Below are positions 22,982 through 55,073 of a DNA stretch of 64,000 nucleotides, piece after piece. The first letter of the stretch is position 1. The number at the start of each line of letters is the position of its first letter. The notes under the pieces were generated by a model. The model was not told the origin of the DNA, did no database searches, and worked only from the letters and a program-made list of their open reading frames with translations. The position numbers and the translations under genes are program-made. The DNA comes from an uncultured virus (IMG/VR IMGVR_UViG_3300049170_000088) (taxonomy: Duplodnaviria; Heunggongvirae; Uroviricota; Caudoviricetes): IMG/VR virus record IMGVR_UViG_3300049170_000088, one strand, 5' to 3'.

Positions 22982-24145
22982 ATGGCCGTCAGCCGGTGCG
23001 CGCCACGCGTAGAGATCGCTCCTCCCCGCAGCACCCGCCGCCCCTTCGGCCTGTACTCCGTCGCCGAGGTCCGCGACGTCGAAGACGGCCACTGGTCGCA
23101 CGGCATCCAGTACCGCACCGAAGCGTGCTCCGGAAACGTCTACGCGTGGCCCAAGCCATGCCCCCCGGCCTGCGAGCCGGACTGCTTCGAGGCCACCACC
23201 ATCACCGTGCGCCTGGTCCACGAGGTCGAAGACCGCGACTGCGGCGACGTCTCCAAGATCACCGCTTCCGTGACGGCCCCCGCCACCCCCGCCGACCTGC
23301 CCTTCCGCACCATCATCAGTGTGTGGGTGGACTCCTGCGGCACCTCCGTGGACCTCACCCCCGGCGACACCGAAGTCACCGTCGCCCGCACCCCGGCCCG
23401 CGCCGGCGCCCTCAAGCCGCACGCGGTCACCGTCCGCGAGTCCTACAACGGCACCGAGAAGACCGTCAGCCTCGCGCCGCAGGCCACCACCGACGTCGTC
23501 CTGACCGCCGACCCCGACCAGCCGCGCCGGAAAGTCCTGGACGGCATCGGCCCGTGGATCGGCTCCGACCCCGTCCCCCTGTACTCCTCCGTGCACTGCA
23601 CCCCCGGCTCCGGCTTCGCCGAGGAGGCCAAGCGGATCACCGAAGACCGCCTGGCCTGCCAGGAGGAGTGCGCCGTGGAGGACTACCTGTGGACCCAACT
23701 CTCCGCCGGCGAAGCCCAGTACGTCGGCAACCCGGCCGCCCCCAAGACGTTCCTGTGCGCCATGGCGGAGCTGGAGGCCGCGACCGCCCGCGAGCGCTCC
23801 TGCACCACCGGCGTCCTGCACGTGCCCGCCCGGCTGTCCCTGCCGCTGTCCTCCGGAGGCTGCTGCCTCATCGAGGAGGAGGGCCGCGCACTGACCACCC
23901 GACTCGGCACGAAAATCGCCCTGGGAGCCTGCTACGACGACCGGATGCGGCCCGACGGCGTCCTCGCCGCGGAGGACCAGGTCGTCCTCATCGCCACCGG
24001 CCCCGTCGTCGTCCAGCGCGGCCCCATCAGCTCCTACGAGGGCCTGGACAAGGTCACCAACGACTACGCCGCCATCGCTGAACGCACCTTCGGCATCATC
24101 GCTGACTGCCCCCTGTTCTGGACCGTCGCGAAGAACTGCTCCTGA
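22982..24145 (+). CDS. capsid-associated (decoration/minor capsid) protein, paralog 2
   Basis: Paralog of 44227-45552: RPFGLYSVAEV..VEDGHW..GIQYR, RRKVLDG, GVLHVPA, TGPVVVQRGP, TNDYAAIAERT. Confidence 0.75.
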   Translation: MAVSRCAPRVEIAPPRSTRRPFGLYSVAEVRDVEDGHWSHGIQYRTEACSGNVYAWPKPCPPACEPDCFEATTITVRLVHEVEDRDCGDVSKITASVTAPATPADLPFRTIISVWVDSCGTSVDLTPGDTEVTVARTPARAGALKPHAVTVRESYNGTEKTVSLAPQATTDVVLTADPDQPRRKVLDGIGPWIGSDPVPLYSSVHCTPGSGFAEEAKRITEDRLACQEECAVEDYLWTQLSAGEAQYVGNPAAPKTFLCAMAELEAATARERSCTTGVLHVPARLSLPLSSGGCCLIEEEGRALTTRLGTKIALGACYDDRMRPDGVLAAEDQVVLIATGPVVVQRGPISSYEGLDKVTNDYAAIAERTFGIIADCPLFWTVAKNCS

Positions 24146-24148
24146 TGA

Positions 24149-24595
24149 TCAGGCGGACGGCGGAAGCACCGGCTCATCGATGTGGCAGTGCTCCACCTCC
24201 ACCCCGTACGCGCCCTCCCAGGACGACCACAGGCTCCGGGCGACCGCCTGACCCACCGCCACCGACCGGTGACGACCGCCCTGGCACACCACCGTCAGGA
24301 ACGCCAGCCGACCCAGCGGAACCTCATCGGCCAGGGCGCGAAGCTGCCGGGCCGTCCGGGCGATCAGCTCCGGGGCGCCGGGCGTCGCCAGCACGTGCGC
24401 GTACACCCGGCCGTGCAAGCCGGTCAGGTACCGCATCGCCGGATCGTCAGCCGGATTGCGCAGCACGTAACGCAGGTCCAGATACAGGCCGTTGGTGACG
24501 AGGTCGTGGGCTCCCTTGTGCCGGAAGCCGATGGTACGCACGACGGCGGCGACGAGCCCTCGCCCGTCCAGATGGGTGATCTGCATGCCGGACAC
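24149..24595 (-). CDS. RapZ C-terminal-like domain protein
   Basis: TIGFRH, DLRYVLRNP, LTGL, CQGGRHRSVAV. Confidence 0.8.
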   Translation of the reverse strand: MSGMQITHLDGRGLVAAVVRTIGFRHKGAHDLVTNGLYLDLRYVLRNPADDPAMRYLTGLHGRVYAHVLATPGAPELIARTARQLRALADEVPLGRLAFLTVVCQGGRHRSVAVGQAVARSLWSSWEGAYGVEVEHCHIDEPVLPPSA

Positions 24596-24640
24596 GATTG
24601 CGCTCCGGCGAAGGTTGCGGAAGTAGTTTCCTGTTTCCTC

Positions 24641-25060
24641 TTACGCCGCCTGCGCCCAGCGCGCGGCCACCGACCGGTCCACGATCATCTCCAGGAGATC
24701 ACGGGAGATGTGCCCCCACCTGCGGCCCGGATCGTCCGTCGGCTCCGCGCCGGACTCGTTGCCGTACGGGGTGAGCACCCGATACGGGTCGGGCCCGTAC
24801 TCACGTACCGCGAGCGCGGCCACCGGGTCGTAGATCTCGCCCACCAGCGCGGCCAGGGGGTTGACGTTGCGCACCGCCCACGCCGAGCGTTCCCGGTCAC
24901 ACGCCGCGCACACCCGCCACCCCCACTTGCCGCGCTGCTCCGCCCGCGCCACGCCCTGCGCCGGCTGATTCGCCGTTCCTCCGCAGTCCCCGCAGGCGAG
25001 CGGACCGGCGTAATTGATGACGGGCAGGAGCTGACCGGACAGTGAGCGCATGCCGCTCAC
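24641..25060 (-). CDS. hypothetical zinc-binding protein
   Basis: CGDC...CAAC; directly downstream of the distal tail gene. Confidence 0.5.
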   Translation of the reverse strand: MSGMRSLSGQLLPVINYAGPLACGDCGGTANQPAQGVARAEQRGKWGWRVCAACDRERSAWAVRNVNPLAALVGEIYDPVAALAVREYGPDPYRVLTPYGNESGAEPTDDPGRRWGHISRDLLEMIVDRSVAARWAQAA

Positions 25061-25069
25061 GCTACGGGC

Positions 25070-26533
25070 TCAGGTGGCGTCGAAGCGCGCGACGTAGCCG
25101 ATGCTGAATTCGGCCTGCGTGTCGATGTTCACGCGGACGTCGGCGCCGGCGGAGTTCTCCACCGTGACCTGCTGCGAGGTGACGATCTCGATGCAGAAGC
25201 CCGTCCCGCACGGGAAGACGGGCCACTGGAAGGACGTGCCGCCAGGACCGATCAGGGGAATGCGCTGTGTGGTCGTGACGAACTTCAGCTTGGGGTCCTT
25301 CTGGCGGCAGCGGGCGTACGCCTTCTGCGACCGGCCGTCGATGGAGATCGACGCGTTGGAAGGCAGCCAGGGGATGAACAGCTCCGCGCACGCCGTGCAG
25401 GGGTCGATGGGGTTCTTCGTGCAGTCCCGGCCCTGGAGGTTCTGGTAGAAGCGGAAGAGGGTGTTCTCCAGCGGCTGCGAGCCCGACTCGATGTTGATGT
25501 ACGGCACGCCCTCCGCCTGCCGCGGCATCAGCAGCGGAGACACCGTCTTGATGGTCCGCCACGCCGCGTAGGGCCTCTCGGGGTAGCAGCGGTCGACGGG
25601 CACCGGCACCTTGGGCACCGGGGGCGGGAAGGGGCAGTGCGGGTTCTCCTCGCACTTGGGTCCTTCGCGCTGCTGCTGGTCGCAGTCCTCGCGCTGCTGG
25701 TCGGGGTCGAACCGGGAGACCTTGCTGCCCTTGACGAACTTGGTGTAGTCCACGACGCGGATGGAGTCCGCGTACGCCCAGGGCTTGCCCGCCACGATGG
25801 TGAACTCCACGCCGGTCGCCACCGCGGCGCCGCCGCGGGCCCCGCCGAACCCGGCGCAGCCGCTCGCGCCTCCGCCGCCGATCTGCGTCACGGTGCCCGA
25901 GCCGGAGGTTCCGCCGCTGCCGCCGCCGGTCAGCGATGAGTCGCCGCCCGAGCCGCCCTGCTGTCCGCCGGTCAGTGCGATCTGGTTGGGGCCCTCCATC
26001 AGCCCGACGTCCATGAAGTGACGCAGGTAGCGGGAGCGCTGGCCCGGATTGTCGCCGTCGTCGTCCTGCGGGCAGCACGAGTAGATGCAGAAGGTCAGGC
26101 CCGAACACTCGTTGTTCTGGCAGGAGTTGCCGCGCAGGATGTGGGAGAGCCAGCCGATTGCGTAGATCAGCGCGCAGTGGTCCAGGGCGAAGACGGCCAG
26201 GGTGACCTGGATCTCGCGGTGCGCCATCCGCAGGGGTCCGATCACCGAGCCGTCGCCGACGGCTTCGGTGGGTGAGCGGGTGCCGGTGCCCCCGAAGCCC
26301 ACCATGTCCATCCCCATGAAGCCCAAGACGCGCTGCGACTCGGGGTAGTGCGGGTCGTACCAGGGCGCCCGGTCGGTCTTGGGCGTGGTGTAGAGCGGCG
26401 AGCCCAGGGCGGCGTTCAGGCCGTCGCAGGGCGCGCACATCATGCCGAGCCCGGCCCGCTGAGCGTAGGCGTAGGTGCGTGCCTCATTCAGGACCTCAAC
26501 CCCGCCGTATTCGGCGTACCCGAGGTAGGGCAT
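25070..26533 (-). CDS. minor tail protein (distal tail/Dit-like)
   Basis: ATG at 26533 with GGAGAG RBS; GYAEYGGVEVLNEART...APWYDP..PES resembles actinophage minor tail proteins that follow the tape measure. Confidence 0.65.
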   Translation of the reverse strand: MPYLGYAEYGGVEVLNEARTYAYAQRAGLGMMCAPCDGLNAALGSPLYTTPKTDRAPWYDPHYPESQRVLGFMGMDMVGFGGTGTRSPTEAVGDGSVIGPLRMAHREIQVTLAVFALDHCALIYAIGWLSHILRGNSCQNNECSGLTFCIYSCCPQDDDGDNPGQRSRYLRHFMDVGLMEGPNQIALTGGQQGGSGGDSSLTGGGSGGTSGSGTVTQIGGGGASGCAGFGGARGGAAVATGVEFTIVAGKPWAYADSIRVVDYTKFVKGSKVSRFDPDQQREDCDQQQREGPKCEENPHCPFPPPVPKVPVPVDRCYPERPYAAWRTIKTVSPLLMPRQAEGVPYINIESGSQPLENTLFRFYQNLQGRDCTKNPIDPCTACAELFIPWLPSNASISIDGRSQKAYARCRQKDPKLKFVTTTQRIPLIGPGGTSFQWPVFPCGTGFCIEIVTSQQVTVENSAGADVRVNIDTQAEFSIGYVARFDAT

Positions 26534-26544
26534 GGATCTCTCTC

Positions 26545-29500
26545 CTATGTCTCGGGCGGGTTGAGGACGGCGGTCACGCCCTTGTTCACGGCGGTGATGT
26601 ACTGGTTGAAGGCGGCTGTACGGTTCGCGGGGTTCTGGATGGACGCGAGGCTGAGGTCGCCGCCTGCGTAGAAGGCCTGGCGCTGCGTGCGGGAGATCTC
26701 GATCTGGCAGCCGGCGCCGAACTCGCACTTGTTGCAGATGTTGTCCCGGTCCGTTCCGGTCAGCCCGGACGGGGCGTCCTTGCACAGGAACCCGGCTGCG
26801 GTCAGCTCGGCGCGGATGGCGTCGCGCAGCTCGGTGTCCAGCCCTCCCACGTAGGTGAGGGCGGTGCCCGGCTCCCGGTCCGCGTGCCCGTGCCAGGACA
26901 CGATCCGCGGTGCAGAGGCCACGTGCGCGACTCCGGTGGGCTCGTCGAAGCGGGTGGAGGTGATGTGCAGCGACGCGTTGTTCGAGGGCTTGCGGCCGGA
27001 GAACGTGTAGAAGCCGTATCCGCCGTTCTGCGCCGCCTGGTCGGCGAGCTGTTCGGGCGGGGCTTCCATGCCGCCGCCGTGGATGGCGATGTGGCTCAGC
27101 CCGTTCGCCACTGGCCGCTCGATGATGAAGTAGTCCCGGTCCTTGACGTTGACCAGGGCGCCGGTGCCCGGGACCAGGTCGGTGGCCAGATCCTCGAAGT
27201 TGAAGTAGGTGTCATTGCCGAGGTCTTCGCAGGGCACCGGGTAGGGGCCGCCGCAGGCCCGGATGCTGGAGTCCTGGATGTCCTGGACGCATACCTCGTA
27301 GGAGCCCGGCTGGTACTCGCGCGGGCTGACGACCTCGCCGGTCGCCGCGGCGTGCGTCGTGGGGTTGGGGTCGTCCGGAATCCAGTAGATCTTGACGCCG
27401 CGGTTGTTCGCGTTGACGTACGAGACCTTGATCTTGTTGGCGTCCGGCGGGCACCCCTCGTACTTGATGCTGACGCCCTTGGCGGCCGGGGTGCCGGTAC
27501 AGGGGATCTGGGTGACGCCGGTCGCCACGGCGGTGCCGCCGTCGGCGTCCTTGACGATGATCTGTACGGGCTGGGATGCCCGGTGCGCCGGGGTGGCGTA
27601 CACGTTCGCCTTGCGGCGCCCGGTGGCGTCGGTGGAGAAGCCCCACGCCAGGCGGGGGCCTTCCGGGCTGGGCAGCACGAAGATCGACTCGGACTCTCGC
27701 CAAGTCAGGTTCGGGTACTGGTCGTTGGGGATGTTCGTGATGACGTTGCCGGTCGCCCCACGGATGTCGGTGACCGTCAAGCGGGCGTTGTTGGCGTCCC
27801 CGGCCCCGTAGAAGTGGTACGCGTAGTTCCCGTACAGCGTCCAGCACTGGAAGTTCGGGATCGACGTGTCGTTGACGGCGCAGTCGAAGACCGGGGAGCC
27901 GAACTGGCGCGCCAGGAAGTCCGACAGCTTCCAGACGGTGATGTGGTACTGGTTGTCCTGGCTGCGGTGGCGGACCGCGATGCGGTCGTGGTCCAGGTCC
28001 AGGCACGGGTTGACATGGTCGGAGTCGGGGCGCGGGTCGTAGCGCTCGATGCTCGGGTCGTTGGCCTGGAGGATCTTCCCGGCGGTGTAGGGGAAGCGGG
28101 CGACCTGGGTGCCGTATCCGTTGGAGCCGATGGCGGTGGGCGGCGGGTCGATGGCGGTGAAGAGGTTGACCGTGCTCCCCGAGTGCTGCACGCCGAGGCC
28201 CGAGCCGTGGTCCCAGCCGCGCGAGGGGCCGGGAAGGACACCGACCAGGTACATGTGGGAGATGGGCTCGGTGCCGTTGGGGGCGACGCGGTTGATGGCG
28301 AGGTGGCCGTTGGCCGCGCGCACGGCGTGGTCGATAGCGGCGTTCTCGCCGGCGAGCTGGCGTCCGCCGTTGATGACCTGGCTGAAGTAGACGTCGCCGT
28401 TGGTGCGGTCGACGTCGGCCTGCTGGTGCACGGTGGTCTGCGAGAGCGTGACCGTGCCGCCCAGGATCGGATCGGCCTTGCGGGCGACCTGGAGCGGGTC
28501 GCCCTCCTTCCAGTAGGTGTGGGCCGGGATCTGGCCGCTCTGGTAGGTCTGCACGTCGCCGTCGCCCCAGTCCACGGTGATCGGGTAGCGGGTTCCGGCG
28601 GCGATGTCCAAGGTGACCTTGTGGTCGTCGGCGGGGTCGCAGATGGCCGTGGCGTCGGGGCCGGACTGGCAGGGCACGTTGACGGTGTCGGCGCCGGTGC
28701 GGCCGTCCTCGTCGGGGTCGGTTGCGGTGATGACGAAGCGGCCGTCCAGACCGGCCGGGTACAGCACGGTCGTGACGTCCACCCCGTCGCCCTGGTTGGT
28801 GGCGTCGTCGATGGTGGCGCCGCTGGTGGCGCTGATGACGACCGAGCCGTGGCCGCGGTTGTCGGCGGTGACCTTGAAGCGGCGGCCGGTGCCGTCGGTG
28901 GGGTCGCAGACCGCGGCCACCGCGATCAGTTCGGCGCCGCCGCCGGTGCACACGGGGGTCTGCACGGAGCGGCAGCCGCCGTCCACGGCCTCGGAGCACA
29001 CCATGATCAGGAAGGAGCGGCCCAGGCCGTCAGGGTAGGCGTGGGTGAGGGTGCCGGGCCGTACGCCGGTCTGGAGCGGGGAGCCGTCGCCCCAGTCGAC
29101 GGAGACGGTGCCGCGGTCGTTGTTGAAGACGCTGATGGTGGCGGTGCAGCTCTGGTTCCAGGAGACGAAGGTGACGTCGGGGCGCAGGCCTCCGGCCACG
29201 TAGGTGCAGCGTCCGCAGAAGTTGGGGATGTCGTTGCGGCAGACCTTGATGGGGAAGCGGCCGTCGGTGGTGAAGGTGTGGCGCAGGCGGGCCGTGCAGT
29301 CCTCACCGACGGCGATGTACTGGTACTGGTCGGTGCCTGCGTCCTCGCCCCAGTCGACGCGCAGTCCGTACTTGCCGATCGGGGATTCGCCGGGGCAGGC
29401 GCAGGCCACGGTGTCGGGGTCCGGGGTGCCGCACCAGGCCTGGGTGGGCAGCGTGACGTCGACCAGGACACTGCGGCCGGTGTCGTCGGTGGGGTCCTGG

Positions 29501-30531
29501 AGGCAGCGGATGACCGGCTCGTCGGGGGGCAGGGGCACGGTCAGGGTGCGGTTGGTGCAGATCTGCGGGAACGCCTTGTCGCAGACGGTGAGTTCGTAGG
29601 TGGCCGGGGCGGCGTTGGGGTTGCCGCATCCGGCGCCGTAGCTGTGCTGGCCGATCTGTCCGTCGCGCAGCTCGGTTTCGGCGCCGTCGCCCCAGCGCAC
29701 GCGGACGGGGCCGTAGCCGCGGTTGTCGGCCTGGACGGTGACGAGGCATCCGGTGGTGTTGGAGCCGCGTTTGACGAGGACTTCGGGCGGCTCGGGGATG
29801 CCGCCGTCCACCGGCTGGATACCGCAGTCGGGTTCGGGAGGCGGGAAGGTCGTCACGAACTGCACGAAGTCGGCGTTCGCGCGGACGGGGCAGGCCAGCG
29901 GGGCAGGGCGCTGGCCGTCCATCAGCACGTTGTAGGGGCCGCGGCCCCAGCCGGAGGAGCGTCGGGTGGTGCCGGAGAAGGAGAAGGTGATGGGCCCGTT
30001 GGCGATGGTCCACTGGCCGATCTGGACGCCGGAGATGCAGGGGAAGAGGAGGTAGCCGTATTCGGCGCCGCCCTGGGACTGCTTGCAGGCGGCGCCGGCG
30101 CCGGAGTAGACGTTCATCCACACCTCCAGTGCGAAGCCGGAGGAGTCGCAGCCGCCGCCGGAGACCGCGGAGAAGCCGATGATCATGCCGGTGGAGTCGC
30201 GGATGGGGCACCAGTTGGGCTTCATGATCAGGACGAGGGAGGGGTCCAGGGCGCACAGTTCCAGGGAGACGCCGTAGTTGGAAGGGGTCGGGCAGGTCAG
30301 GGTGGTGAAGCAGACCTGTCCGTCGGCCTTGGTGATGGGGTTCTGGTCGCCCTGGTCACCGCCTTCGTCTTCGCCGGGTGAGACGACGATGTTGACGAAG
30401 GCATCAGTGGTGACCTGCCCGCTTCCGCCGGGGTTTTGGGGGTCCTCGAAGAGGGGGCGGCAGCACCCGTCCAGCTTGGTGGCGCGCAGCACAGCGGCAC
30501 CGCTGAAGCTGGGGCAGATCACCTGAGCCAT
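26545..30531 (-). CDS. tail tube paralog 2 fused to PKD repeats, TagC/RBP-like propeller and poly-gamma-glutamate hydrolase
   Basis: N-terminal ~520 aa highly similar to 42378-44126; repeated DWGDG..HTY; propeller-like segment; C-terminal HGGGME, HITSTRFDEP, SWHG, QIEIS. Confidence 0.8.
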   Translation of the reverse strand: MAQVICPSFSGAAVLRATKLDGCCRPLFEDPQNPGGSGQVTTDAFVNIVVSPGEDEGGDQGDQNPITKADGQVCFTTLTCPTPSNYGVSLELCALDPSLVLIMKPNWCPIRDSTGMIIGFSAVSGGGCDSSGFALEVWMNVYSGAGAACKQSQGGAEYGYLLFPCISGVQIGQWTIANGPITFSFSGTTRRSSGWGRGPYNVLMDGQRPAPLACPVRANADFVQFVTTFPPPEPDCGIQPVDGGIPEPPEVLVKRGSNTTGCLVTVQADNRGYGPVRVRWGDGAETELRDGQIGQHSYGAGCGNPNAAPATYELTVCDKAFPQICTNRTLTVPLPPDEPVIRCLQDPTDDTGRSVLVDVTLPTQAWCGTPDPDTVACACPGESPIGKYGLRVDWGEDAGTDQYQYIAVGEDCTARLRHTFTTDGRFPIKVCRNDIPNFCGRCTYVAGGLRPDVTFVSWNQSCTATISVFNNDRGTVSVDWGDGSPLQTGVRPGTLTHAYPDGLGRSFLIMVCSEAVDGGCRSVQTPVCTGGGAELIAVAAVCDPTDGTGRRFKVTADNRGHGSVVISATSGATIDDATNQGDGVDVTTVLYPAGLDGRFVITATDPDEDGRTGADTVNVPCQSGPDATAICDPADDHKVTLDIAAGTRYPITVDWGDGDVQTYQSGQIPAHTYWKEGDPLQVARKADPILGGTVTLSQTTVHQQADVDRTNGDVYFSQVINGGRQLAGENAAIDHAVRAANGHLAINRVAPNGTEPISHMYLVGVLPGPSRGWDHGSGLGVQHSGSTVNLFTAIDPPPTAIGSNGYGTQVARFPYTAGKILQANDPSIERYDPRPDSDHVNPCLDLDHDRIAVRHRSQDNQYHITVWKLSDFLARQFGSPVFDCAVNDTSIPNFQCWTLYGNYAYHFYGAGDANNARLTVTDIRGATGNVITNIPNDQYPNLTWRESESIFVLPSPEGPRLAWGFSTDATGRRKANVYATPAHRASQPVQIIVKDADGGTAVATGVTQIPCTGTPAAKGVSIKYEGCPPDANKIKVSYVNANNRGVKIYWIPDDPNPTTHAAATGEVVSPREYQPGSYEVCVQDIQDSSIRACGGPYPVPCEDLGNDTYFNFEDLATDLVPGTGALVNVKDRDYFIIERPVANGLSHIAIHGGGMEAPPEQLADQAAQNGGYGFYTFSGRKPSNNASLHITSTRFDEPTGVAHVASAPRIVSWHGHADREPGTALTYVGGLDTELRDAIRAELTAAGFLCKDAPSGLTGTDRDNICNKCEFGAGCQIEISRTQRQAFYAGGDLSLASIQNPANRTAAFNQYITAVNKGVTAVLNPPET

Positions 30532-34536: not shown

Positions 34537-34722
34537 CTACTCGCCCGCCCTCTTGCCCCGGCGGCGCAACACCCGGCCGGGCAGCGTGATCAGCTTCTTC
34601 ACCCCGCCGAGCGCCACGCCCACGACGAGCCCGGCCAGAACAACGAGCGCCAGGACCACCCAGCCCAGGGTCTTGAACACTCCGGCGAGCACGACCGGAT
34701 CGGAAGCAGCGAGCAGCATCAT
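34537..34722 (-). CDS. small single-TM protein
   Basis: Hydrophobic helix and basic tail; ATGA-coupled. Confidence 0.5.
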   Translation of the reverse strand: MMLLAASDPVVLAGVFKTLGWVVLALVVLAGLVVGVALGGVKKLITLPGRVLRRRGKRAGE

Positions 34723-34958
34723 GAACCTCCTGTGTGGGGACCGGCGATCCGTCCGCCGGTCAACGCGTCGAACCAGATCTCTTCGTCCTCGGCGTCCGGG
34801 TCCTTCACGACCCAGTACGGGAGGCCGTCCAGCACCACGACCTGGAGGGCCCCCAGCGGGCCGTGGCGAGTCGAGCGGCGCCCGATGTCCCCCAGCGCCG
34901 AGCGCAGGGCGGCGGCGGCCGGTCGCGCGTGCGCCATGCCGGGTACTCCGGTCCGCAT
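34719..34958 (-). CDS. hypothetical protein
   Basis: Follows the hub gene; GA-rich RBS. Confidence 0.5.
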   Translation of the reverse strand: MRTGVPGMAHARPAAAALRSALGDIGRRSTRHGPLGALQVVVLDGLPYWVVKDPDAEDEEIWFDALTGGRIAGPHTGGS

Positions 34959-41865: not shown

Positions 41866-41868
41866 GCG

Positions 41869-44126: not shown

Positions 44127-44226
44127 ACGCCACGACTCCATTCACGAATCTGTCCGATACATACCTACTGGATGCATTCTGTCCGTTTTTTGAGCTTTCG
44201 TCTGCTGTGCCGGGTTCAGTGTCGGA

Positions 44227-45771: not shown

Positions 45772-48216
45772 CTACTTGTTGCGCGAGGTGTTCCGCTGCG
45801 TGCCCGTACCGCCGCCACCGCTGGACTGCTGTCCAGAGGGAGCCGCCAGCGGAGCCGGGGCAGGCGCCGGGGCGGGCGGCACCGGCGCCGGGGTGTCGCA
45901 CGGCCGGAATCCGAGCTGCGCGGCCTGCTGATCGGCGAACGCCTTCTCCGCGTTGGTGAACGCCTGGTTGCAGTCGTTGCAGTCGGACGGGCCGTAGCCC
46001 GGCGTGCACTCACACGGCTTGCAGCCGGTGACGACCGGACCACCGGACAGACCGTTCGGGCAGAGCGGGATGTCCAGGAGGTAGGGGTCGTAGCAGCGCT
46101 TGCACACCTGGATGCCCTCTTCGGTGAAGAGGGAGGTGTACTTGTTCTCCATCAGCGACGCGTGGTCGTAGATGCCTTCCAGCGTGATGACGTCCTGCTG
46201 GAGCTTGAAGACCGATCCGGCCGGGTACAGCAGGATCTTCACGTGCGTCGGCCAGTGCGACGGCGGCAGGCCGCCGAAGAGCGGACCGGCGTTCTGGCCG
46301 CAGAACGTGTCGCACTTGAACTCGAAGGGGCGCAGGCAGTTGAACTTCGCGTCGCAGCAGTCGCCGCCCTCGTACACGCCCGCCGCGCAGCAGCTCGCGG
46401 CCGGAAGGACGCGGCCCTCGTTGGAGGACCGGCGCGGCCGTCCGGCGCACGGGTTGTTCGGGTCGGGGGTGTCGCACGGGCAGCAGTCGTACACGCCGGG
46501 GCTGTGCGGGTACTTGGCCTTGCCGTGGCTCGGGTTCTCGTTGGGGCAGCCGCACCCGGGCGGGCAGTCGCCGTTGTTCGGCTGGAAGGCCGCCGAGAAG
46601 GCGTCCTGCCAGTCGTAGACGAACTGGACGCGCACGCCGCGGGACTGGAGGAACTGAATGAGCTGCTGGTCGGTGACGTTCCAGCGGTTCAGGTTCCAGC
46701 CGGACTTCTTGGAGAGGTCCGCGCGCAGGATCGGCAGCAGCCAGTACGGCATGATCGCTTCGAGCGTCGCGGCGCGCGGCAGGCGGTACCGGTAGCGCTG
46801 GTACTCGACCATCATCTCCAGGATGGAGAGGACGGACTCCACGGCGCCGGGGCCGTGCAGACCGGCGACGTCCATGCCCGAGGTGGGCAGGTTGACCTGC
46901 GGCATGCTGATCTGGGTCGCCAGGGACTCCACCTTGGCGATGGTCCAGGCGTTCATGCGGCGGCGGTGCGCCTTCAGGACGCGGGCGGTGAAGTCCGCCG
47001 TCCACTCCGGCCATCCGCGCTCCATCAGGATCGAGTTGCGGATGCAGATGCCGTCCAGCTCCAGCAGACACTCAGTCCACTCGGGGCACGGGATCTCGAT
47101 GCAGCACTTCTTCTTGCCGTCCGGGGCGTCGTCGCAGTCCTTCCAGTGCAGGTCGTCCTTCCCGAAGTGGAAGCCGACGCCGCCGTAGAGGGGGCTGAAG
47201 TCGAACGCCTGCGGGAAGCGGATACCGCTGCGCCGCGTGGTGACGGTGGGCAGGTCAAGGAAGCCGTCGTCGCCCTGGTCGTCGGGACACAGGTCCCACA
47301 GGGTGTCCGGCGGCGCGCACCAGGCGCCCGCGGCCACCAGGCTGCCGCCCGGCAGGGAGAACTCGTCGGCGGCGGCCTTGATCGCCCCGTCGATGTCCAT
47401 CTCCTGCGTGATGGAGTACTTGCTCGCCACGTGGCGGGTGATGGTCGCGATGCCCGCGCGGCCCGACGTCGCCGAGCGCACCATGGACTGCATGCGCGTG
47501 TTGACGACGGTGGCCAGGTGGCCGATGTCGCCGATGTTCTGGCGCGAGGAGATGCCGGGGACGTCCGCGGAGGTGACCGTGTACCGCGCGGAGCGGTCAT
47601 CGGCCGCCGCGCGCGAGCCGGAGCCGCGGCCGGGGGTGACACCGGCGCCCTTGGAGCGCAGGAAGTTCAGCGGCAGGCGCCGGTCCTGGGTGGCCAGGGC
47701 GCGGGAAGCGCCGGCGGAAGCCGAGGACTTCTTCTTCGTGGTCTTCTTCTTGTCGTCCTTGGCCGGGGTGTCGGCGCCCGGATCGTCCTTCGGGTCGTCG
47801 TCTTCGTCGGCGTCCTCGTCGTCGGCGGAGTCGTCGGCGAACTGGCCGCCCTCACCCTCGTCGTCGTCGGCGCCGTCCTCGCTGACCACGCGTGCCCCGA
47901 GCGAGGCGAGGCGGCGCTGGGCCTCCTCGTTGCGCTGCTGGGTGCCCACGTTGTACTCGCGCAGGTGCTCCACCACGTCCACGAGGAATTCGAGGGCGGT
48001 GAGCTGGTCATCGCTGGGGGTGCGCTCTTCCGCCTCTTCGCGCAGCTCCCGGAAGCGGTCGACGGCGGCGGCCTCCAGGCCGCTCATGTCGGTGCCGCTT
48101 TCGGCAGCGGCGCTCACGGCGTCGCGGATTGCCTCACTGCGCTCGTCGTCGTTCGCGGACGCGAGCACGTTGAGGATGTCGTCAAGTTCCACCTGAGTGT
48201 CCTTTGATCGAGACAT
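45772..48216 (-). CDS. major capsid protein with N-terminal scaffold-like region
   Basis: GGSLVAAGAWCAPPDTLWDLC, LDLPTV..RRSGIRF, VYDWQ, WP..V.ILLYPAG, LFTEEG; likely ATG at 48216. Confidence 0.85.
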   Translation of the reverse strand: MSRSKDTQVELDDILNVLASANDDERSEAIRDAVSAAAESGTDMSGLEAAAVDRFRELREEAEERTPSDDQLTALEFLVDVVEHLREYNVGTQQRNEEAQRRLASLGARVVSEDGADDDEGEGGQFADDSADDEDADEDDDPKDDPGADTPAKDDKKKTTKKKSSASAGASRALATQDRRLPLNFLRSKGAGVTPGRGSGSRAAADDRSARYTVTSADVPGISSRQNIGDIGHLATVVNTRMQSMVRSATSGRAGIATITRHVASKYSITQEMDIDGAIKAAADEFSLPGGSLVAAGAWCAPPDTLWDLCPDDQGDDGFLDLPTVTTRRSGIRFPQAFDFSPLYGGVGFHFGKDDLHWKDCDDAPDGKKKCCIEIPCPEWTECLLELDGICIRNSILMERGWPEWTADFTARVLKAHRRRMNAWTIAKVESLATQISMPQVNLPTSGMDVAGLHGPGAVESVLSILEMMVEYQRYRYRLPRAATLEAIMPYWLLPILRADLSKKSGWNLNRWNVTDQQLIQFLQSRGVRVQFVYDWQDAFSAAFQPNNGDCPPGCGCPNENPSHGKAKYPHSPGVYDCCPCDTPDPNNPCAGRPRRSSNEGRVLPAASCCAAGVYEGGDCCDAKFNCLRPFEFKCDTFCGQNAGPLFGGLPPSHWPTHVKILLYPAGSVFKLQQDVITLEGIYDHASLMENKYTSLFTEEGIQVCKRCYDPYLLDIPLCPNGLSGGPVVTGCKPCECTPGYGPSDCNDCNQAFTNAEKAFADQQAAQLGFRPCDTPAPVPPAPAPAPAPLAAPSGQQSSGGGGTGTQRNTSRNK

Positions 48217-48230
48217 CGACTTTTGGTGCT

Positions 48231-48786: not shown

Positions 48787-49220
48787 GGGGTTCTCCGTTC
48801 TCTTTCAGGGCCCGCGGAGTCCCGGCCGTTCCGCCGGTCGGTGACGCGCAGGAGTTGTTGGGGTGGCTGCGGCGCGCGCGAGCCCGCGCTGATGCCGCTC
48901 GCGAGCTGGGCCAGACGCTCATCGCGCAGCCGGGCCGCGTCCTCGTCGGTGGTGCGCTCGGAGACCTCGGGCACGTGCCACATCCGCCTCGCGGCTTCCT
49001 TGCGCAGGGCGAAGGCGATCTCTCCGGCCGGTGAGTCGATGACCACGCGCAGGTGGCTGCCGCCCTCGATGGGCACCAGGGAGGACGGCCACATCCCGGC
49101 GAGCACGCCGAGCACCAGGGCCAAGTCCTCCTCGGTGCGCTCCAGGGCCTGGCTCAGCGCGTGGAACTCCTCGACCGACGGCCGGAACTTGGCTCCGGCC
49201 GTCTTCTTGGCACCGGCTAT
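48783..49220 (-). CDS. hypothetical protein, distantly similar to 13116-13667 (start unclear)
   Basis: High GC3; MWPS...VVIDSPAGEIAF parallels RWPS...VYIASPAGQLSW. Confidence 0.45.
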   Translation of the reverse strand: MAGAKKTAGAKFRPSVEEFHALSQALERTEEDLALVLGVLAGMWPSSLVPIEGGSHLRVVIDSPAGEIAFALRKEAARRMWHVPEVSERTTDEDAARLRDERLAQLASGISAGSRAPQPPQQLLRVTDRRNGRDSAGPERERRTP

Positions 49221-51508
49221 GACGCCACCGCCTCGGCCTCGGCCAGGGCCTGGGTGTCCTCGGCTGCGTTCGCGCGGGACTCCGCCCGCTTGGCCTGCCA
49301 GTGCGCGACGTCCGCGCAGCCCTGGGCGCGGGTCTTGGCGGTCACCCGCTGGGTCTTGGGCCAGTTCAGGCCGTCGGCCGGGTTGCCTCCGGCGCCGCCT
49401 CGGCACCACTTCTTGACGACGTTGACGGCCACCGCGATGGCATGGGACTCCGTCATGCCCTTGGCCATCAGGTGGTTGGCCACGCGCCGGATGAAGTTGG
49501 GCAGGTGCCCGGTGGTGGTCTTCTCGATCCAGTTCTCGCGGTTGCCCTTCTTGAAGCCCTCGGCCTCCGCGACGCCCGCGTACTCGCCCTCCTTGCCCTC
49601 CTCGGGCTGACAGGCGTGCATGATCTCCGGGTCGGCCAGACACTCGATCATGTAGGCGGCCAGCTCCTCGTGATACGCCGGGGAGCCGCCCACGTCACTG
49701 TCGCCGATGCCGCCGGATGCCTTGCCGGTGTCGCCGAGCGGTCCGGGACGCTCGGCGAGTTCGGCCATGCGCTTGGTCATGCTGGCGATGCGCGAGCCGG
49801 ACAGCCGCTTCGCGGCCAGCTGCACGCGCGCGGTGCGCTCCGCGGCGAACACGCTCTCCGCGCGCGCCTGGTGCGCGTCGGCGTCCTGGCTCAGGGCGCC
49901 GCAGCCCAGCGCGGAGAACGGCGCTCCCTCGGCGCCGGCGCGAGCCCTGGTCTGGGGGAAGCCGGGCACGTTGACGGCGAGCGCGGCCACCAGCTCCATG
50001 CCGCCGCGCACCGCACGCCAGTCGCCGGACAGCCCGCACAGCGCGATGCGGGTGCGCTCCTCCTCGTCCAGGTGGGGCAGCAGGGAGCCCGCGCACCAGA
50101 TGCCGAACTCGTCCTCGCCGACGGCGACGACGGCCGCCATGGTGCCGGTGTTGTCGTAGTGGGCCGTCGCGGAGGCGGGCAGCGCTTCCAGGGAGGCGTG
50201 GCCGGTGTCCATGGTGATGACGCCGACCTCGCGGATACCGCCGCCCTTGGTCTCCAGGAGGCGGGTGGCGTAGTAGGCGTAGCCCGTGTTGGACGGCGGG
50301 GCCATCACGCACCGCTTGTCCACGCCGATGTGGCAGACGTTCCACAGCGCGAGGTGGCCGAAGACGCGGTCGCCGGCGACGGTCCAGGGAGTGCCCTCGG
50401 CGAACGGGGGCCGCTCGAACCACGGGGCGGGGGGCTTGAAGGAGTCGGGGGCGAACTGGCCAACCGCGAGGGCGGTCGTGGTGGAGCGGACCAGCGAGGC
50501 CGCGGACTTCTTCTCGCCCTTCCAGGGAGCCTGGATGGAGGGGTCCTTGAAGGTGGTGGCGGCGCGGCTGTAGAGGGTGCTGAGCTTGGACTTCAGGCCG
50601 GAGGTGGACACGTCGGTGCCGCCGCGGCCACCCTGGACGACGGCCGCCGCGGCAACGACGCCGGAGAAGACGGCCTTCAGCTCGCCGTCGATGACGTCGG
50701 CGAAGGGGAACTTGTAGGAGCCGACGTTGTTGGGGTCGGCGTTCTCGTCGCGGTAGAGGAAGCCCTGGCTCATCTTGGCTACGTCCAGCGAGCCGTCTTC
50801 CTTCTTGGCGCGGGCGGCCATGCGCTTCTTCGCTCCGGCGCCGTCCCAGGACCGGCCGCGGTCGGCGAAGGGAAGGGAGGTGTTGCCGATCGCCGCGGCG
50901 GTGACCGCGTAGCCCTCGGTCAGCTTCTCGCCCTCGATGTCGCCGGTCTCCGCGTAGGAGGAGACGAACGCCTCGGGGAAAGCGGGCTGAGAGACGAGGG
51001 TGGCCCCCATCAGCCGCCAGTCGGAGAAGACGATGCCCTGGTGTGCGGGCAGTTCCTCGGGGTCATCACTGGCCGCGTAGGCAGCGCAGTCAACCAAGGA
51101 GCGGTTGTCTCCGATGCAGCCGATCTGGTGGGAGTCGTCGTCCAGGTCCACGCTCACGAAACGGAGCCAGTTCTGGTGGACCTTGCGGGCGACGTCGGCC
51201 GCGCGCTCGTCCTCCAGATCAAATCGGCCTTCCCCCATCAGCAGGTCGCCTTCGATCCAGGCGTGGTCGATCACGCCCACCGGGACGGCGCCGTCGTGGC
51301 CCTGACTCAGGGCGTCCTGGTAGAGGAGCGGGAGCGGGAGGGGACGGGTGCGGGGCACGCCGTTCTCGGGCCGGGCCAGGAGTCGCCGGTCACGGGAGGA
51401 GGCGAAGACGCCGAGCGGGGCCAGGACGCCCCTCCACGTGCCGGGGACCGGGGCGTCGTCGCCGTCGGTCTTGGAGTTCTGAGTGCTTTCAGTGGTTACG
51501 GTCATCAT
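49217..51508 (-). CDS. capsid maturation protease, multidomain
   Basis: WRGVLAP, PLPLLYQ, GHDGAV.VG, VSVDLD, GATLV..PAF; between portal and capsid. Confidence 0.8.
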   Translation of the reverse strand: MMTVTTESTQNSKTDGDDAPVPGTWRGVLAPLGVFASSRDRRLLARPENGVPRTRPLPLPLLYQDALSQGHDGAVPVGVIDHAWIEGDLLMGEGRFDLEDERAADVARKVHQNWLRFVSVDLDDDSHQIGCIGDNRSLVDCAAYAASDDPEELPAHQGIVFSDWRLMGATLVSQPAFPEAFVSSYAETGDIEGEKLTEGYAVTAAAIGNTSLPFADRGRSWDGAGAKKRMAARAKKEDGSLDVAKMSQGFLYRDENADPNNVGSYKFPFADVIDGELKAVFSGVVAAAAVVQGGRGGTDVSTSGLKSKLSTLYSRAATTFKDPSIQAPWKGEKKSAASLVRSTTTALAVGQFAPDSFKPPAPWFERPPFAEGTPWTVAGDRVFGHLALWNVCHIGVDKRCVMAPPSNTGYAYYATRLLETKGGGIREVGVITMDTGHASLEALPASATAHYDNTGTMAAVVAVGEDEFGIWCAGSLLPHLDEEERTRIALCGLSGDWRAVRGGMELVAALAVNVPGFPQTRARAGAEGAPFSALGCGALSQDADAHQARAESVFAAERTARVQLAAKRLSGSRIASMTKRMAELAERPGPLGDTGKASGGIGDSDVGGSPAYHEELAAYMIECLADPEIMHACQPEEGKEGEYAGVAEAEGFKKGNRENWIEKTTTGHLPNFIRRVANHLMAKGMTESHAIAVAVNVVKKWCRGGAGGNPADGLNWPKTQRVTAKTRAQGCADVAHWQAKRAESRANAAEDTQALAEAEAVAS

Positions 51509-51538
51509 CGCCTCACGAAGTGACGGTTTGCGGCGACT

Positions 51539-54076
51539 TTAACCTTTGATCCCTGTTAGGTCCTTTGACCGATCCGGCCCAGGAATGTCTGTTTCCTCCC
51601 GAGGGGCGGAGAGGTCCGCCCACTCCGGGCATCCGCGCTCCGCCATCACGGCCCGCAGCAGCATCAGGTCGTGCGGCTTGCCCTCCCTGATCAGCGCCCG
51701 CACGTAGATGTCGACCAGCTCGTGCGTGCACGGCGCGTCCGGCAGCACCAGATGCAGATCCCGGTACGCCCCGGCGAGCATCAGTTCCGTCTGCTCGGTG
51801 TTCGGCTCCAGGTGCACGTGGATCTCGTGCTTGGGGATGTCCCGGTACTGCGCCCGCACCGGCCGGGACTGACGCGACAGCAGCCAGTTGCCCGCCTTGT
51901 CCAGCGCGCGCACCGCGGCCATCTCCACGGCCTTCTCCACCGCCGCGGCGCCCGGCGCCGACGGCCCGGCCGGGGCCCCCTTGCTCTTGGGCTGCGGCCG
52001 GTCCTTGGCGCCCTCCTCCACCGGCCGACCCGACTTCTGCGGGGCCTTCTTGCCCCCGTCCCCCGAGGCGGCGCCGCCCGCGGCCGACGACTTGTTCTGC
52101 GCCGGCGAGCTCCCGCCGCCCTGCTGCTGGGTCTTGGGCGGCACCGGTGCCGAGGAAGCCACCTGGTTCTTCGCGTACTCCTGGAGATCGGGGGTGTCGA
52201 TGCCCAGCAGCGGCAGCAGCAGAGGGGCGATCAGGCCCTGCGAGGCCACGATCGACTGGAGTACGTGTCGGTTGCGCTCCTCCTTGGTGGGCGCGTCCTC
52301 GTCCCCGAAGCCCAGCACCTGCCGCAGCGCCCGCTCGCCCAGTGCGCCCTGCTGGTAGGCCTGGAGCGCCTGCTGCGGCCGGTTGGCCTGCTGCACCAGG
52401 TCCGACACGTCGTACCAGAGTGCGAACTCCTCGGTGTCCCCGACGCCGAGCGCTTCGAGCGAGGGCCGTAGGTACTGATACGTCAGCGCGTCGCAGATCA
52501 GCGCGAGCAACGGCTCAATGTGGATCTTGATGCTCGACTCTTCGAGCGCCCACACGCTGTTCCCGGTCCAAAACACGGTGCCCTCGTGCCGGGCCAGCCA
52601 CGTCTGGTTCCCGGTGGTGGGGCACCAGATGGTGCCCGTGTAGTACGTCTGGTTCATCTGCTTGGGCGTGGGCGTGAACCGGCCGCGGTGCGCCAGCGAC
52701 AGATCGCGGGCGCCGTCCTCGGTGTCGGTCAGCAGGTGGAAGTAGCCCAGCTCCGCGGAGAGCAGATCCTTGGAGGTCACCCACATCGGCACGCCGTGAC
52801 GCGAGCGGACCGGCCAGCGGTGCGCGAGCGTGGTCAGCGAGTGATGCCCCTCGCCCTTCATCTCCACCATGGGCTCAGCGAGCACGTCCCACGTGTTGAT
52901 CTCCTGGCACGCTCCCCACTCCGGGGCGCCGGTCTGGTGATTGAGGGTCATCACCTCCTCTCCCTGCTTCAGCTCGCCGTAGGTCTTCCAGCCGCCGCGG
53001 GTGAGAATTTCCGTTGTATCGGGCACGCACCAGTGGTTGATGTCGGCGATGCCCAGCAAGATTTCTGCCGGGATGTCCAGGCCGGAGGCGATGCGTTTGG
53101 TCGCGGCGTCGCGCAGGTCGGCCGCCGCGGCGTCCAGCGGCGTGGAGAAGGAGAAGTGCTTGATGCCGTTCCCGGCCTCCGCGGGCCCGCGCACCACGAT
53201 GGGCACCACCGCCGAGGCGCTGCCGCGGTCCTTCAGCGGCGTCATCATCGCCTCCACCAGGGAGGCCGTGAACGGATCGGAGTGGATGGGGTTGATGCCG
53301 TCGCCCTGCGCGGGCTGGGGGAAGGTCAGCTCGTCGGGCAGGAAGAGCAGACCCGCGCCGGCGAGGCGGGATTCCGCGGAGGCGGAGATGTGCGCGGAGA
53401 GGTCCAGCAGCTCCTTGCACGCCCCGCGCAGCGAGATGACCGGCGAGTCGGGGTACCAGTTGCGCCGGGGGTGCGGGCGCCAGATCCGGATGAGGGCCGC
53501 GTTGTCGGTGTCGATCTCGACCGGGTCCGGCTCGTCGGGCGGCGTGATCTGCATCGTCCCGGAGGCGGAGTTGGTGACCTCTGCGGAGTTGACGACCTGC
53601 CAGATCCGCTCGTGGTCCTCGGGGTGGTCGTAACCGCAGATGTAGGTCTCGCCCACGAGGTTGATGTGGGTGGCCAGGCGCCGCAGCATCTCGCCCTGCC
53701 CGAGCTGGCCCCCGAACAGCTCGTAGTAGGGCTGGAGCACCCGGTCCATGCCGTCTTCGGAGGACTCGATCGGCGTGGGCGGCGCGGAGCCTTCCGGGTC
53801 GATGCGGCCGATGTAGAGCCTGGCCCTGGAACAGGCGTTGGCAATCCAGCCGATGCCGAAGCGCAGCTCGGGAACGGAGTCGTACAGCTCCCAGGCGTCG
53901 ATCTGCCAGTCCGCGGCCTGGGAGACCGGCCGTACCCGGTCGCGGGTGATCAGCGCGGCGGAGGCGACGGTCGCGGTACCGAAGGTGCGCGGGATGTGGT
54001 GGCCGTCGTCGGGCAGGTCGATGGTTCGGGTGTGGGTGGCGGTGGTCTTCCTGGTCAGCCGGGGAAAGACGCTCAC
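51539..54076 (-). CDS. portal protein with intein
   Basis: WQIDAWELYDSVPELRF, RIWRPHP, DSP, SRLAGAG, SAVVPIV, GLDIPAEILLG..NHW; first gene of the head module. Confidence 0.85.
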   Translation of the reverse strand: MSVFPRLTRKTTATHTRTIDLPDDGHHIPRTFGTATVASAALITRDRVRPVSQAADWQIDAWELYDSVPELRFGIGWIANACSRARLYIGRIDPEGSAPPTPIESSEDGMDRVLQPYYELFGGQLGQGEMLRRLATHINLVGETYICGYDHPEDHERIWQVVNSAEVTNSASGTMQITPPDEPDPVEIDTDNAALIRIWRPHPRRNWYPDSPVISLRGACKELLDLSAHISASAESRLAGAGLLFLPDELTFPQPAQGDGINPIHSDPFTASLVEAMMTPLKDRGSASAVVPIVVRGPAEAGNGIKHFSFSTPLDAAAADLRDAATKRIASGLDIPAEILLGIADINHWCVPDTTEILTRGGWKTYGELKQGEEVMTLNHQTGAPEWGACQEINTWDVLAEPMVEMKGEGHHSLTTLAHRWPVRSRHGVPMWVTSKDLLSAELGYFHLLTDTEDGARDLSLAHRGRFTPTPKQMNQTYYTGTIWCPTTGNQTWLARHEGTVFWTGNSVWALEESSIKIHIEPLLALICDALTYQYLRPSLEALGVGDTEEFALWYDVSDLVQQANRPQQALQAYQQGALGERALRQVLGFGDEDAPTKEERNRHVLQSIVASQGLIAPLLLPLLGIDTPDLQEYAKNQVASSAPVPPKTQQQGGGSSPAQNKSSAAGGAASGDGGKKAPQKSGRPVEEGAKDRPQPKSKGAPAGPSAPGAAAVEKAVEMAAVRALDKAGNWLLSRQSRPVRAQYRDIPKHEIHVHLEPNTEQTELMLAGAYRDLHLVLPDAPCTHELVDIYVRALIREGKPHDLMLLRAVMAERGCPEWADLSAPREETDIPGPDRSKDLTGIKG
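52559..53029 (-). other. mini-intein (157 aa) in portal
   Basis: N-terminal CVPDTTEILT..GWK; block B TLAHRW; block F IWCPTT; C-terminal TGN followed by Ser. Confidence 0.9.
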
Positions 54077-54081
54077 TTAGA

Positions 54082-54405
54082 TCACCTCGCGTCCAGGTGC
54101 TGAGCGGCCAGGCCGGTCAGCCAGGAGAGGGTGAGCAGTCCGGCGCCCCACTGGTAGGCGAGGGTGTCTCCGTACTCGATCGCGGCCGGGGTGACTCCGG
54201 CGGCCACCCAGATCGACATGCACCAGGGGCAGCCGATCAGCTCGTTGAACCACTCCCAGCCCGCGGAGGGCTTGCCGCCCTCCTCCTGGGGGGTCGCCTT
54301 CTTCGCGAGGCGATCACGCAGGGGGAAGGTGATGCTGTCCCTGCCGATGAGGCGGGTGATGCGCGCGGTCGCGCCGAGGGCGGTGATGGCAGTGATCGGG
54401 TCCAC
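54082..54405 (-). CDS. DUF1360-like membrane protein
   Basis: ATARITRLI..DSIT.PLR...ELIGCPWCMSIWVA. Confidence 0.8.
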   Translation of the reverse strand: MDPITAITALGATARITRLIGRDSITFPLRDRLAKKATPQEEGGKPSAGWEWFNELIGCPWCMSIWVAAGVTPAAIEYGDTLAYQWGAGLLTLSWLTGLAAQHLDAR

Positions 54406-54653
54406 GCGGCGCACACTAACCAAAAAGCGACATCACGCCCGGTAGCGCCCATACGTGGCGAACCTGAACTGTCGTCACCAATACCCGCAGATGCGAGAAT
54501 TAGCGCAATGCGGTGGATACCGTTTCACGCCTTGTTCTGCACCTGGGTCTACACCATCTGGCAGCAGCCCCCCACCGGCCCGACCAACCTGCCCATCTAC
54601 ATCGCGGTCCTCGGAGCAGTGATCGCCTTCCGCCAGGAGGAGGAACCCGAGCC

Positions 54654-55073
54654 ATGGCCGTCGCCCGACTCAACTCCGGCGCCATCAACCACCTCCTCAA
54701 GGGCCGCGGCGGACTCGTCGACCGGCACTTCTCCCGCCACGCCGCCAACGTCGAACGCGCCTGCAAGGCCCTCGCCCCCGCCGAGTCGGGCGCCCTGAAG
54801 GCGTCCATCCGCACCCGGCGCACCGTCGCCGGTCCCCTGGTCATCTGGCACATCGGCTCACCGCTGCGCTACGCCAAGTACCCCAACTGCGGAACCGGCA
54901 TCTACGTCGGCCGCGGACGCATCGTCCCTCGCCGAGCCCCCAAGCTCGTCTTCTACTACAAGGGCCGCAAGTGGGTCCTGGACTCCGTCCGCGGCCAGGA
55001 GCCGCAGCGCTTCATGATCGAAGGGCTGCGCCGCGGCCAGCCCTACCCAGTCACCCCGCTGCCCTGCGGCTGA
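54654..55073 (+). CDS. HK97 gp10-like neck/tail-completion protein
   Basis: AP.ESGALKASI, YAKY..GTG, VRGQ.PQRFM; GGAGGAGG RBS. Confidence 0.75.
   Translation: MAVARLNSGAINHLLKGRGGLVDRHFSRHAANVERACKALAPAESGALKASIRTRRTVAGPLVIWHIGSPLRYAKYPNCGTGIYVGRGRIVPRRAPKLVFYYKGRKWVLDSVRGQEPQRFMIEGLRRGQPYPVTPLPCG

Follow-up and report, generated by a model that had tools for sequence, protein, structure and literature searches.

Why would intact siphovirus head and tail genes occur together without a terminase or a lysin? The question arose from a 64,000-nt stretch of DNA of an uncultured virus (IMG/VR record IMGVR_UViG_3300049170_000088), the whole of which is referred to here as the window. Its initial annotation described a rearranged, partly duplicated virion module at 22982–55073, and proposed either a large phage-plasmid with dispersed modules or a domesticated particle system resembling a gene transfer agent (GTA) or associated with spores. 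Our analysis favors the phage-plasmid. With a probability of roughly 80%, the window is a piece of a ~190 kb temperate Streptomyces siphovirus, known from its genes alone, that can persist as a circular plasmid of the pSTRVI02 family. Terminase and lysin are absent from the window because the contig is cut, and the gene layout itself is real; the apparent anomaly is thus mostly ordinary. A 67,577 bp contig is the recorded source of the window's capsid protein, which makes the window only part, about one third, of a pSTRVI02-like element. GC content across the window was 65–72%.

Collinearity with plasmid pSTRVI02

pSTRVI02 (NC_015952.1), the sister element in the following text, is a complete circular plasmid of 191,151 bp from Streptomyces violaceusniger Tu 4113. 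The whole virion module of the window is collinear with it, in the same order and at ~70–85% DNA identity (for example, 82.8% over 12.8 kb), and window position 435 corresponds to pSTRVI02 position 139,478. The 17 virion genes had 49–88% protein identity. Rearrangement is therefore not peculiar to the window; a Micromonospora plasmid also carries an inverted gp10 gene before DUF1360.

The ratio of nonsynonymous to synonymous substitution (dN/dS) was 0.20–0.52 in 30/30 window-sister gene pairs, 17 of them virion genes, by a simple Nei-Gojobori count in which the dropping of poorly aligned columns lowers the ratio and high GC content at third codon positions (GC3) caps dS and raises it. The 30 pairs were uninterrupted in both elements, with no internal stops. 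Purifying selection thus acts on all 17 virion genes, which are intact in window and sister alike, in agreement with the annotated absence of decay.

Terminase and lysis genes outside the window

The gene set was obtained from a codon model. Pfam and PHROG scans of 70 window proteins matched no terminase or lysin family, and tblastn of the window with TerL, TerS and lysin queries also gave no match. The suggestion that these genes lie outside the window was borne out on pSTRVI02. A tblastn search with Rosebush-type TerL missed the pSTRVI02 terminase; the PF03237 profile found it at 129 kb. A TerS-like gene (129,522–130,058), named by its position and by homologues upstream of other ATPases, is accompanied by a split TerL consisting of an ATPase gene and an RNase H nuclease gene (127,751–128,386). 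An alignment of the nuclease and 27 relatives matched TerL nuclease structures (E 8e-13) and retains the catalytic Asp residues; half of the aligned sequences (14 of 28) match PF17289. Full-length relatives of the ATPase (269–271 aa, 82–88% identical) have Walker A/B motifs and match terminase PHROGs. The amidase endolysin is encoded at 134,716–135,306 (PF01510 E 1e-21; PHROG 880, endolysin). On the pSTRVI02 map, the terminase and amidase genes lie ~90 kb from the portal gene and 4–12 kb past the match of the window's left end. A second TerL-nuclease-like gene, degenerate and without the catalytic Asp pattern, was observed on pSTRVI02 (L105:7624–8421, −); it is kept in locus L111 and in contigs of run X1.

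Displaced terminase is common in this capsid lineage: among 84 loci examined, TerL was ≤3.5 kb upstream of the portal gene in 7 of the 16 informative ones, a count that relied on three queries and may miss some. The pSTRVI02-type terminase had no match to the TerL of Phlyer or S. atratus, which points to replacement by another module; an exchange of this kind would account for the gap ahead of DUF1360.

Of the sequence words of window 44001–54000, 0.99 are present in sequencing run X1, the sole run listed for this region; no RNA data set was listed for it. In X1, a 10,292 bp contig (depth 496) covers TerS and the amidase, pieces of the ATPase have the same depth, and a 6,755 bp contig (depth 595) covers both nuclease-like genes. 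A loose end in the X1 ATPase matches only P0124, an uninterrupted sequence, among 8 relatives tested; the window element's own ATPase is probably uninterrupted. Three S. noursei proteins sharing one accession prefix are a capsid protein, a tube 2 protein and an uninterrupted ATPase.

Distribution and lifestyle of the family

Head, tail, packaging and lysis genes occur together on pSTRVI02, with the ATPase interrupted in the record. The sister is a circular plasmid record, and the window is known as a contig only. Replication, recombination and modification genes of pSTRVI02 (94 and 90 larger ORFs scanned) comprise a primase-polymerase, Erf, an exonuclease, methylases and an integrase. The ParA annotated beside the module was recovered in the window, which also carries antitoxin-like genes:
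16039..18014, +: ParA and partner gene (PF13614 E 1e-31); not found on pSTRVI02
Candidates for plasmid partition or replication functions are ParA in the window and the primase-polymerase on pSTRVI02. No FtsK/TraB match was found on pSTRVI02, so that the virion is its obvious route of spread.

In a strict first look at 401 Streptomyces genomes, 11 had a capsid match, and only that of pSTRVI02 was close (1,603 bits vs. ≤359); the terminase ATPase was found in 0/401. A single close capsid match, together with the gene set of pSTRVI02, is what would be expected of a mobile phage-plasmid, not of a system fixed in its hosts. A Kitasatospora relative lies on a contig of 190,722 bp.

The family was not found by the searches made of IMG/VR and the GenBank phage collection. 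No long DNA match to the window element was present among 50,697 phage records, and viral contigs gave no match to TerS, to Dit or to an alignment of the close capsid proteins; capsid scans of viral and genome contigs returned only distant relatives (28–44% identity) among the matches listed. No description of a pSTRVI02-type family was found in the literature covered, which excludes most subscription papers. The one paper found to name pSTRVI02 (PMC5001237) concerns transporters, and "Streptomyces" has 0 occurrences in the main text of PMC7969092. The ~190 kb Streptomyces phage-plasmid family is thus uncatalogued in these sources, and the supplement of Pfeifer et al. 2021 may already list pSTRVI02 as a phage-plasmid. 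Because a cultured strain carries this complete member, the family should be inducible.

pSTRVI02 also carries fatty-acid/AfsA-type and sugar-modifying gene clusters. One contains ketosynthase, acyl carrier and AfsA-related genes (L078:21707–29553, −). The only family match of a 2,693-codon ORF (L076:4127–12208, +) is a C5 methylase domain close to the end of the ORF.

Head proteins

The neck and head genes are as follows.
54654..55073, +: HK97 gp10-like neck/tail-completion gene, inverted (PHROG 5 E 3e-5)
54082..54414, −: DUF1360 membrane protein (PF07098 E 2.5e-11, PHROG 781)
51539..54076, −: portal protein (PHROG 776 E 9e-143)
49217..51508, −: capsid maturation protease (PHROG 21470, 859, 18402; Phlyer gp12 E 2e-28)
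45772..48192, −: major capsid hexamer protein with Cys-rich inserts (PHROG 777 E 7e-124; 82% identical to its pSTRVI02 counterpart)
44227..45552, −: capsid pentamer-type protein 1 (PHROG 779 E 2e-39; Phlyer gp15 E 4e-6)
22982..24145, +: capsid pentamer-type protein 2 with an inserted beta domain (PHROG 779 E 7e-34; Phlyer gp15 E 1e-4)

The intact portal, protease, capsid, tube, adaptor, tape measure, hub and Dit-like ORFs described initially were all recovered (PHROG 776, 859/21470, 777, 792, 783, 305, 837 and 838), as was the inverted neck gene directly upstream of DUF1360, the marker ahead of portal in this capsid lineage. The sister's copy of the neck gene is 87% identical, annotated as HK97 gp10 family, and in the same orientation. 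Relative to the Phlyer and phiAsp2 portals, the portal protein carries a single 157-aa insert (residues 350–506; 52559–53029, −), with a Cys start and an Asn/Ser end common to the window and pSTRVI02. Intein matches of the insert were weak (Atlas 0.85; PDB E 0.06); it is probably a mini-intein.

Two genes had been annotated as decoration genes. The first is instead of pentamer type. The second does lie on the opposite strand, 21.6 kb from the capsid gene; however, its match to the Phlyer gp15 pentamer and its predicted fold do not support a decoration identity. The two proteins are 35% identical, and their pentamer role is taken from the GenBank annotation of Phlyer gp15 (major capsid pentamer protein). 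A model of pentamer-type protein 2 built from 38 sequences (pLDDT 83.9) aligned with 9eg4 (VIA; Z 13.9, rmsd 4.8, 251 aligned) and with HK97 (VIA; Z 11.4, rmsd 4.5, 234 aligned), and by this model the protein has a predicted HK97 fold. PDB sequence searches with the capsid and pentamer proteins gave no meaningful match. "Major capsid hexamer protein" is the annotation of database matches to the capsid protein, the closest phage matches being those of phiAsp2, Gordonia phages and cluster B mycobacteriophages (33–38% identity). The element encodes three HK97-type proteins, one hexamer and two pentamer-type, the third being extra.

Several virion proteins encoded at 40095–48192 are Cys-rich (capsid 3.8%, tube 4.9%, adaptor 7.7%, terminator 7.9%). 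Capsid Cys content was 3.4–4.1% in 7 close full-length members vs. a median of 1.7% in 110 others. This composition suggests a disulfide-linked or metal-binding particle.

Tail proteins and exchangeable tail-tip modules

The tail genes are as follows.
42378..44141, −: major tail tube protein 1, with PKD/Ig-like extensions (PHROG 792 E 5e-56)
41869..42393, −: PKD/Ig-like protein overlapping the end of tube gene 1 (weak PF18911)
40849..41865, −: head-tail adaptor (PHROG 783 E 3e-65)
40095..40859, −: probable tail terminator (position; phiAsp2 pas20 E 2e-7)
39556..40041, −: probable tail assembly chaperone 1 (position; PF23781 E 0.009, under cut-off)
38816..39559, −: probable tail assembly chaperone 2 (position only; 64% identical to sister)
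36430..38766, −: tape measure protein, 778 aa, with 72-nt repeats (PHROG 305 E 1e-42)
34987..36420, −: baseplate hub / minor tail protein (PHROG 837 E 6e-63)
34719..34958, −: small gene after the hub (tblastn; sister has a 689-aa gene between)
26545..30531, −: tube protein 2, with tube domain, PKD repeats, propeller and hydrolase (PHROG 792 E 2e-50)
25070..26533, −: Dit-like tail-tip protein (PHROG 838 E 7e-51; Phlyer gp29 E 2e-7)

As annotated, the tape measure gene is 9.9 kb away from the Dit-like gene, which stands behind a second tube gene, and no tail fibre follows the hub. The second tube gene is present; however, it encodes a tube/receptor-binding fusion and not a plain tube. Tube 2 has 55% identity to tube 1 over 557 aa and carries a five-bladed receptor-binding propeller (residues ~678–1004; PF21311, 26.5 bits, cut-off 23.7) and a poly-gamma-glutamate hydrolase (residues 1130–1313; PF05908 E 6e-45; PDB 3a9l E 4e-30), and therefore probably stands in for the missing fibre. 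The pSTRVI02 and S. noursei tube 2 proteins have the propeller, whereas no hydrolase match was found in either. Ten of 150 library matches also had a hub domain, and one library protein has hydrolase and propeller before a region that is Dit-like by eye. These domain combinations mark propeller and hydrolase as exchangeable tail-tip modules. For the last 861 residues of tube 2, structure prediction from the single sequence reached a pLDDT of only 35.8, and the model was set aside. The 689-aa gene that follows the hub in pSTRVI02 is absent from the window (tblastn), and a PDB sequence search with its product gave nothing meaningful.

The 16-nt overlap of tube gene 1 with the next gene (42378–42393) is also present in pSTRVI02. 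In both elements, tube gene 1 stops inside a PKD-like repeat that is apparently completed by the overlapping gene. Frameshift extension of tube 1 is possible; no common slippery site was seen in both elements.

In the mechanism that we propose, induction would lead to assembly of an HK97 head from one hexamer and two pentamer-type proteins, plus a non-contractile tail. Tube 2 would be built into the tail, probably near the Dit ring, displaying the carbohydrate-binding propeller; in the window isolate it would also display the hydrolase that cuts poly-gamma-glutamate. Packaging would be carried out by a two-gene TerL, of a lineage other than the Rosebush type, from the separate module with the amidase.

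Short inserts in the terminase ATPase gene of relatives

Three distinct close ATPase loci were seen as DNA, all outside the window, and 3/3 were interrupted. The inserts are as follows.
L105:10082–10089, −: 8 nt, after codon 149 (pSTRVI02)
L109:10256–10264: 9 nt with a stop, after codon 93 (L109/L110)
L111:5575–5582: 8 nt, after codon 229 (L111)
The first insert codon was an in-frame ATA in 3/3, and the last three letters of the insert copied the preceding codon (GCC/GCC, GAA/GAA) or its synonym (CTT/CTC). ATA is rare (3/15,030 codons in 41 window genes; 13/40,230 in pSTRVI02 high-GC3 ORFs). Under the trinucleotide content of these genes, the chance of three random words being alike was 4e-4 and that of all being ATA was 5e-8; the former is the fair figure, because ATA was not predicted beforehand. 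Sequencing error was rejected for two of the three inserts: the L109 type was present on 11 ENA and 8 JGI contigs, and three sources contributed 4 contigs with the L111 type. For the pSTRVI02 insert there is a single assembly. No internal stop or split was found in 144 other ATPase loci (28–44% identity), one of which had an extra partial match, and no bypass-like insert was found in window genes compared with the sister (an automatic set of 68 that missed some true genes).

These features make the inserts candidates for translational bypass, like the UUA bypass of phage Hau3. In extracts of Antonov et al. 2023 (PMC10732093), 7–10 nt UUA inserts are described in 3/100 terminase genes (Hau3 and two prophages), with a junction peptide detected in E. 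coli. Our cases share with these a short insert at a conserved TerL position, a rare first codon, a matched landing codon and uninterrupted orthologues. They differ in that the first codon is AUA, not UUA, the terminase is split and unrelated, and the three sites are different. "AUA" and "ATA" have 0 occurrences in that paper's main text. Our literature search found no paper on AUA-keyed bypass. Few cases of natural translational bypassing are known to us. AUA needs a TilS-modified tRNA and is decodable in Streptomyces. No tRNA genes were found in the window, and no tRNA-Ile gene on pSTRVI02.

In some members, the full-length ATPase would be made only if the ribosome skips the 8–9 nt insert at a slow AUA codon, which we consider about as probable as its opposite. 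The same even odds apply to the wider proposal that the family has repeatedly gained an AUA-keyed terminase bypass, acting as a packaging switch from plasmid life to virions and keyed to shortage or inactivation of lysidine tRNA-Ile, in combination with a large head of three HK97 proteins and a tube-2 receptor/depolymerase. If this were true, Streptomyces phages would have in AUA another rare-codon sensor besides UUA. The three independent inserts, all with one and the same first codon, are ready test cases and point to AUA supply as a signal. Against bypass, all inserts begin with ATAT, so they may be the footprint of a mobile element; five close sequence types (P0121, P0122, P0123, P0124, P0395) are uninterrupted; and the hairpins predicted near all three insert sites (without a shuffle control) differ in position and give no common stimulatory signal.

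The interrupted ATPase genes of L105, L109 and L111 had a GC3 of 0.72–0.74 before the insert and synonymous divergence of 0.60–0.73, vs. 0.29–0.44 for TerS. Codon use in this gene looks relaxed or de-optimised.

Alternatively, the inserts could be loss-of-function lesions in a grounded phage, in a family turning into a plasmid, whose empty heads or tails serve the host in a spore-associated or bacteriocin-like role. Interruption of 3/3 ATPase loci and the Cys-rich virion proteins are consistent with this; however, it is improbable in view of the five uninterrupted sequence types, the single lesion per interrupted gene with overall dN/dS of 0.07–0.15 (which would hold too if the inserts were recent), and the in-frame ATA start with matched end codon in 3/3, which random lesions do not predict.

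Comparison with known systems

Bclasvirinae (Rosebush, Phlyer) and Actinoplanes phage phiAsp2 share with the element the DUF1360, portal, protease, hexamer and pentamer pair, tube, adaptor, hub and Dit families. Separate hexamer and pentamer HK97 proteins characterize Rosebush-type virions, and the gene content indicates a virion of the Rosebush/phiAsp2 type, with the third HK97-type gene in addition. As in the sister, the small terminase gene of phiAsp2 is apart from the portal gene. These phages differ in their identity to the element (~30–40%), genome size (58–69 kb), the lack of any further pentamer or tube gene within the 50 kb displayed, and far fewer capsid and tube cysteines; Phlyer has a single-gene TerL. 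The 10 kb from the capsid gene that the loci of this lineage cover allow no fair test of one-copy pentamer and tube counts. The element falls outside Bclasvirinae as a taxon, which has ~70 kb genomes and the lineage's single-gene TerL, whereas the sister has 191 kb. The tube paralogue with receptor and depolymerase domains and the third HK97-type protein are relevant to the scaling of a 70 kb-class virion up to 190 kb.

Extracts of PMC4487206 describe pSLE1 and pZL12 as Streptomyces plasmid-phages. These two and the 99–103 kb Streptomyces plasmids with this capsid family are likewise circular replicons with virion genes, differing from the pSTRVI02 family in being about half its size; the S. 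atratus plasmid has an unsplit TerL near the portal gene. pZL12 is said to have a lytic cycle. Stand-alone ATPases of the present type number more than 7,500 proteins. Those of Thermus phage Riverbug and Meiothermus phages MMP7 and MMP17 are ~270 aa and ~40% identical; their phages are only 33–34 kb, and the second, degenerate nuclease-like gene is present in our family.

The domesticated system proposed initially is unlikely. In its GTA-like form, a plasmid-borne transfer particle would have a near-T=9 head, too small for the 190 kb replicon, and would pack pieces of plasmid or host DNA. Known phages with this capsid family have genomes of 55–101 kb, and extracts of PMC7150772 give T=9 and 67 kb for Rosebush and T=16 and 165 kb for Myrna; the terminase of another lineage and the scattered modules also agree with such a particle. 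A GTA, however, is chromosomally fixed and inherited vertically across a clade, whereas this element is extrachromosomal and rare (one close match in 401 genomes), its replicon keeps TerS, TerL, endolysin, replication, recombination and methylase genes, and its tail-tip enzymes and receptor modules vary among members, as in ordinary phages. We regard this reading as having little chance of being correct.

Several points weigh against a ~190 kb phage-plasmid. Given that a T=9 Rosebush head packs 67 kb (extracts of PMC7150772), a much larger head would be needed here. The only complete sister has a frameshifted ATPase, and no holin was identified on it. The stand-alone ATPase type also occurs on 11–32 kb plasmids, so that its pairing with this portal is one that we infer. 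No physical link connects the terminase contigs of X1 with the window, the loose-end motif is absent from the window, and run X1 may itself be the window's source. pSTRVI02 has an integrase and no ParA was found on it; it could therefore be an excised prophage. In the least probable of the alternatives, the circular plasmid record would be a form of an ordinary jumbo-size phage, either lytic or temperate and integrating. The tyrosine integrases that both elements carry, the lack of a ParA or TraB match on pSTRVI02 and the high contig depth in the soil run speak for it; the sister's separate circular contig in a cultured strain's genome and the window's ParA, partner gene and antitoxin-like genes speak against it.

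Other genes of the window

Two further features were noted.
59155..63681, −: four membrane proteins kept in the sister, the last DUF2637/SpdB-like by Atlas features only
30691..32076, +: 461-aa helical protein, 71% identical to the sister's (no family match in Pfam or PHROGs)
Spd-like genes had been annotated beside the module. One of the four membrane proteins had an Atlas feature score of 0.94 to DUF2637 clusters; Pfam and NCBIfam gave no support, and no blastp match to a DUF2637 protein was found.

Three glycosyltransferases and a methyltransferase, kept in the sister, are encoded at 8462–10977 and 14763–15869 (−). phiAsp2 has a similar cluster, so virion or DNA glycosylation is possible. 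A small protein with a signal-peptide-like start is encoded at 33113–33394 (−), in one copy in the window and as three tandem homologues on pSTRVI02; it matched no family and looks chaplin-like by eye. The window further carries a tyrosine recombinase gene and a Phd/YefM-like antitoxin gene (19479–20972) and a RapZ C-terminal-like gene (24149–24595).

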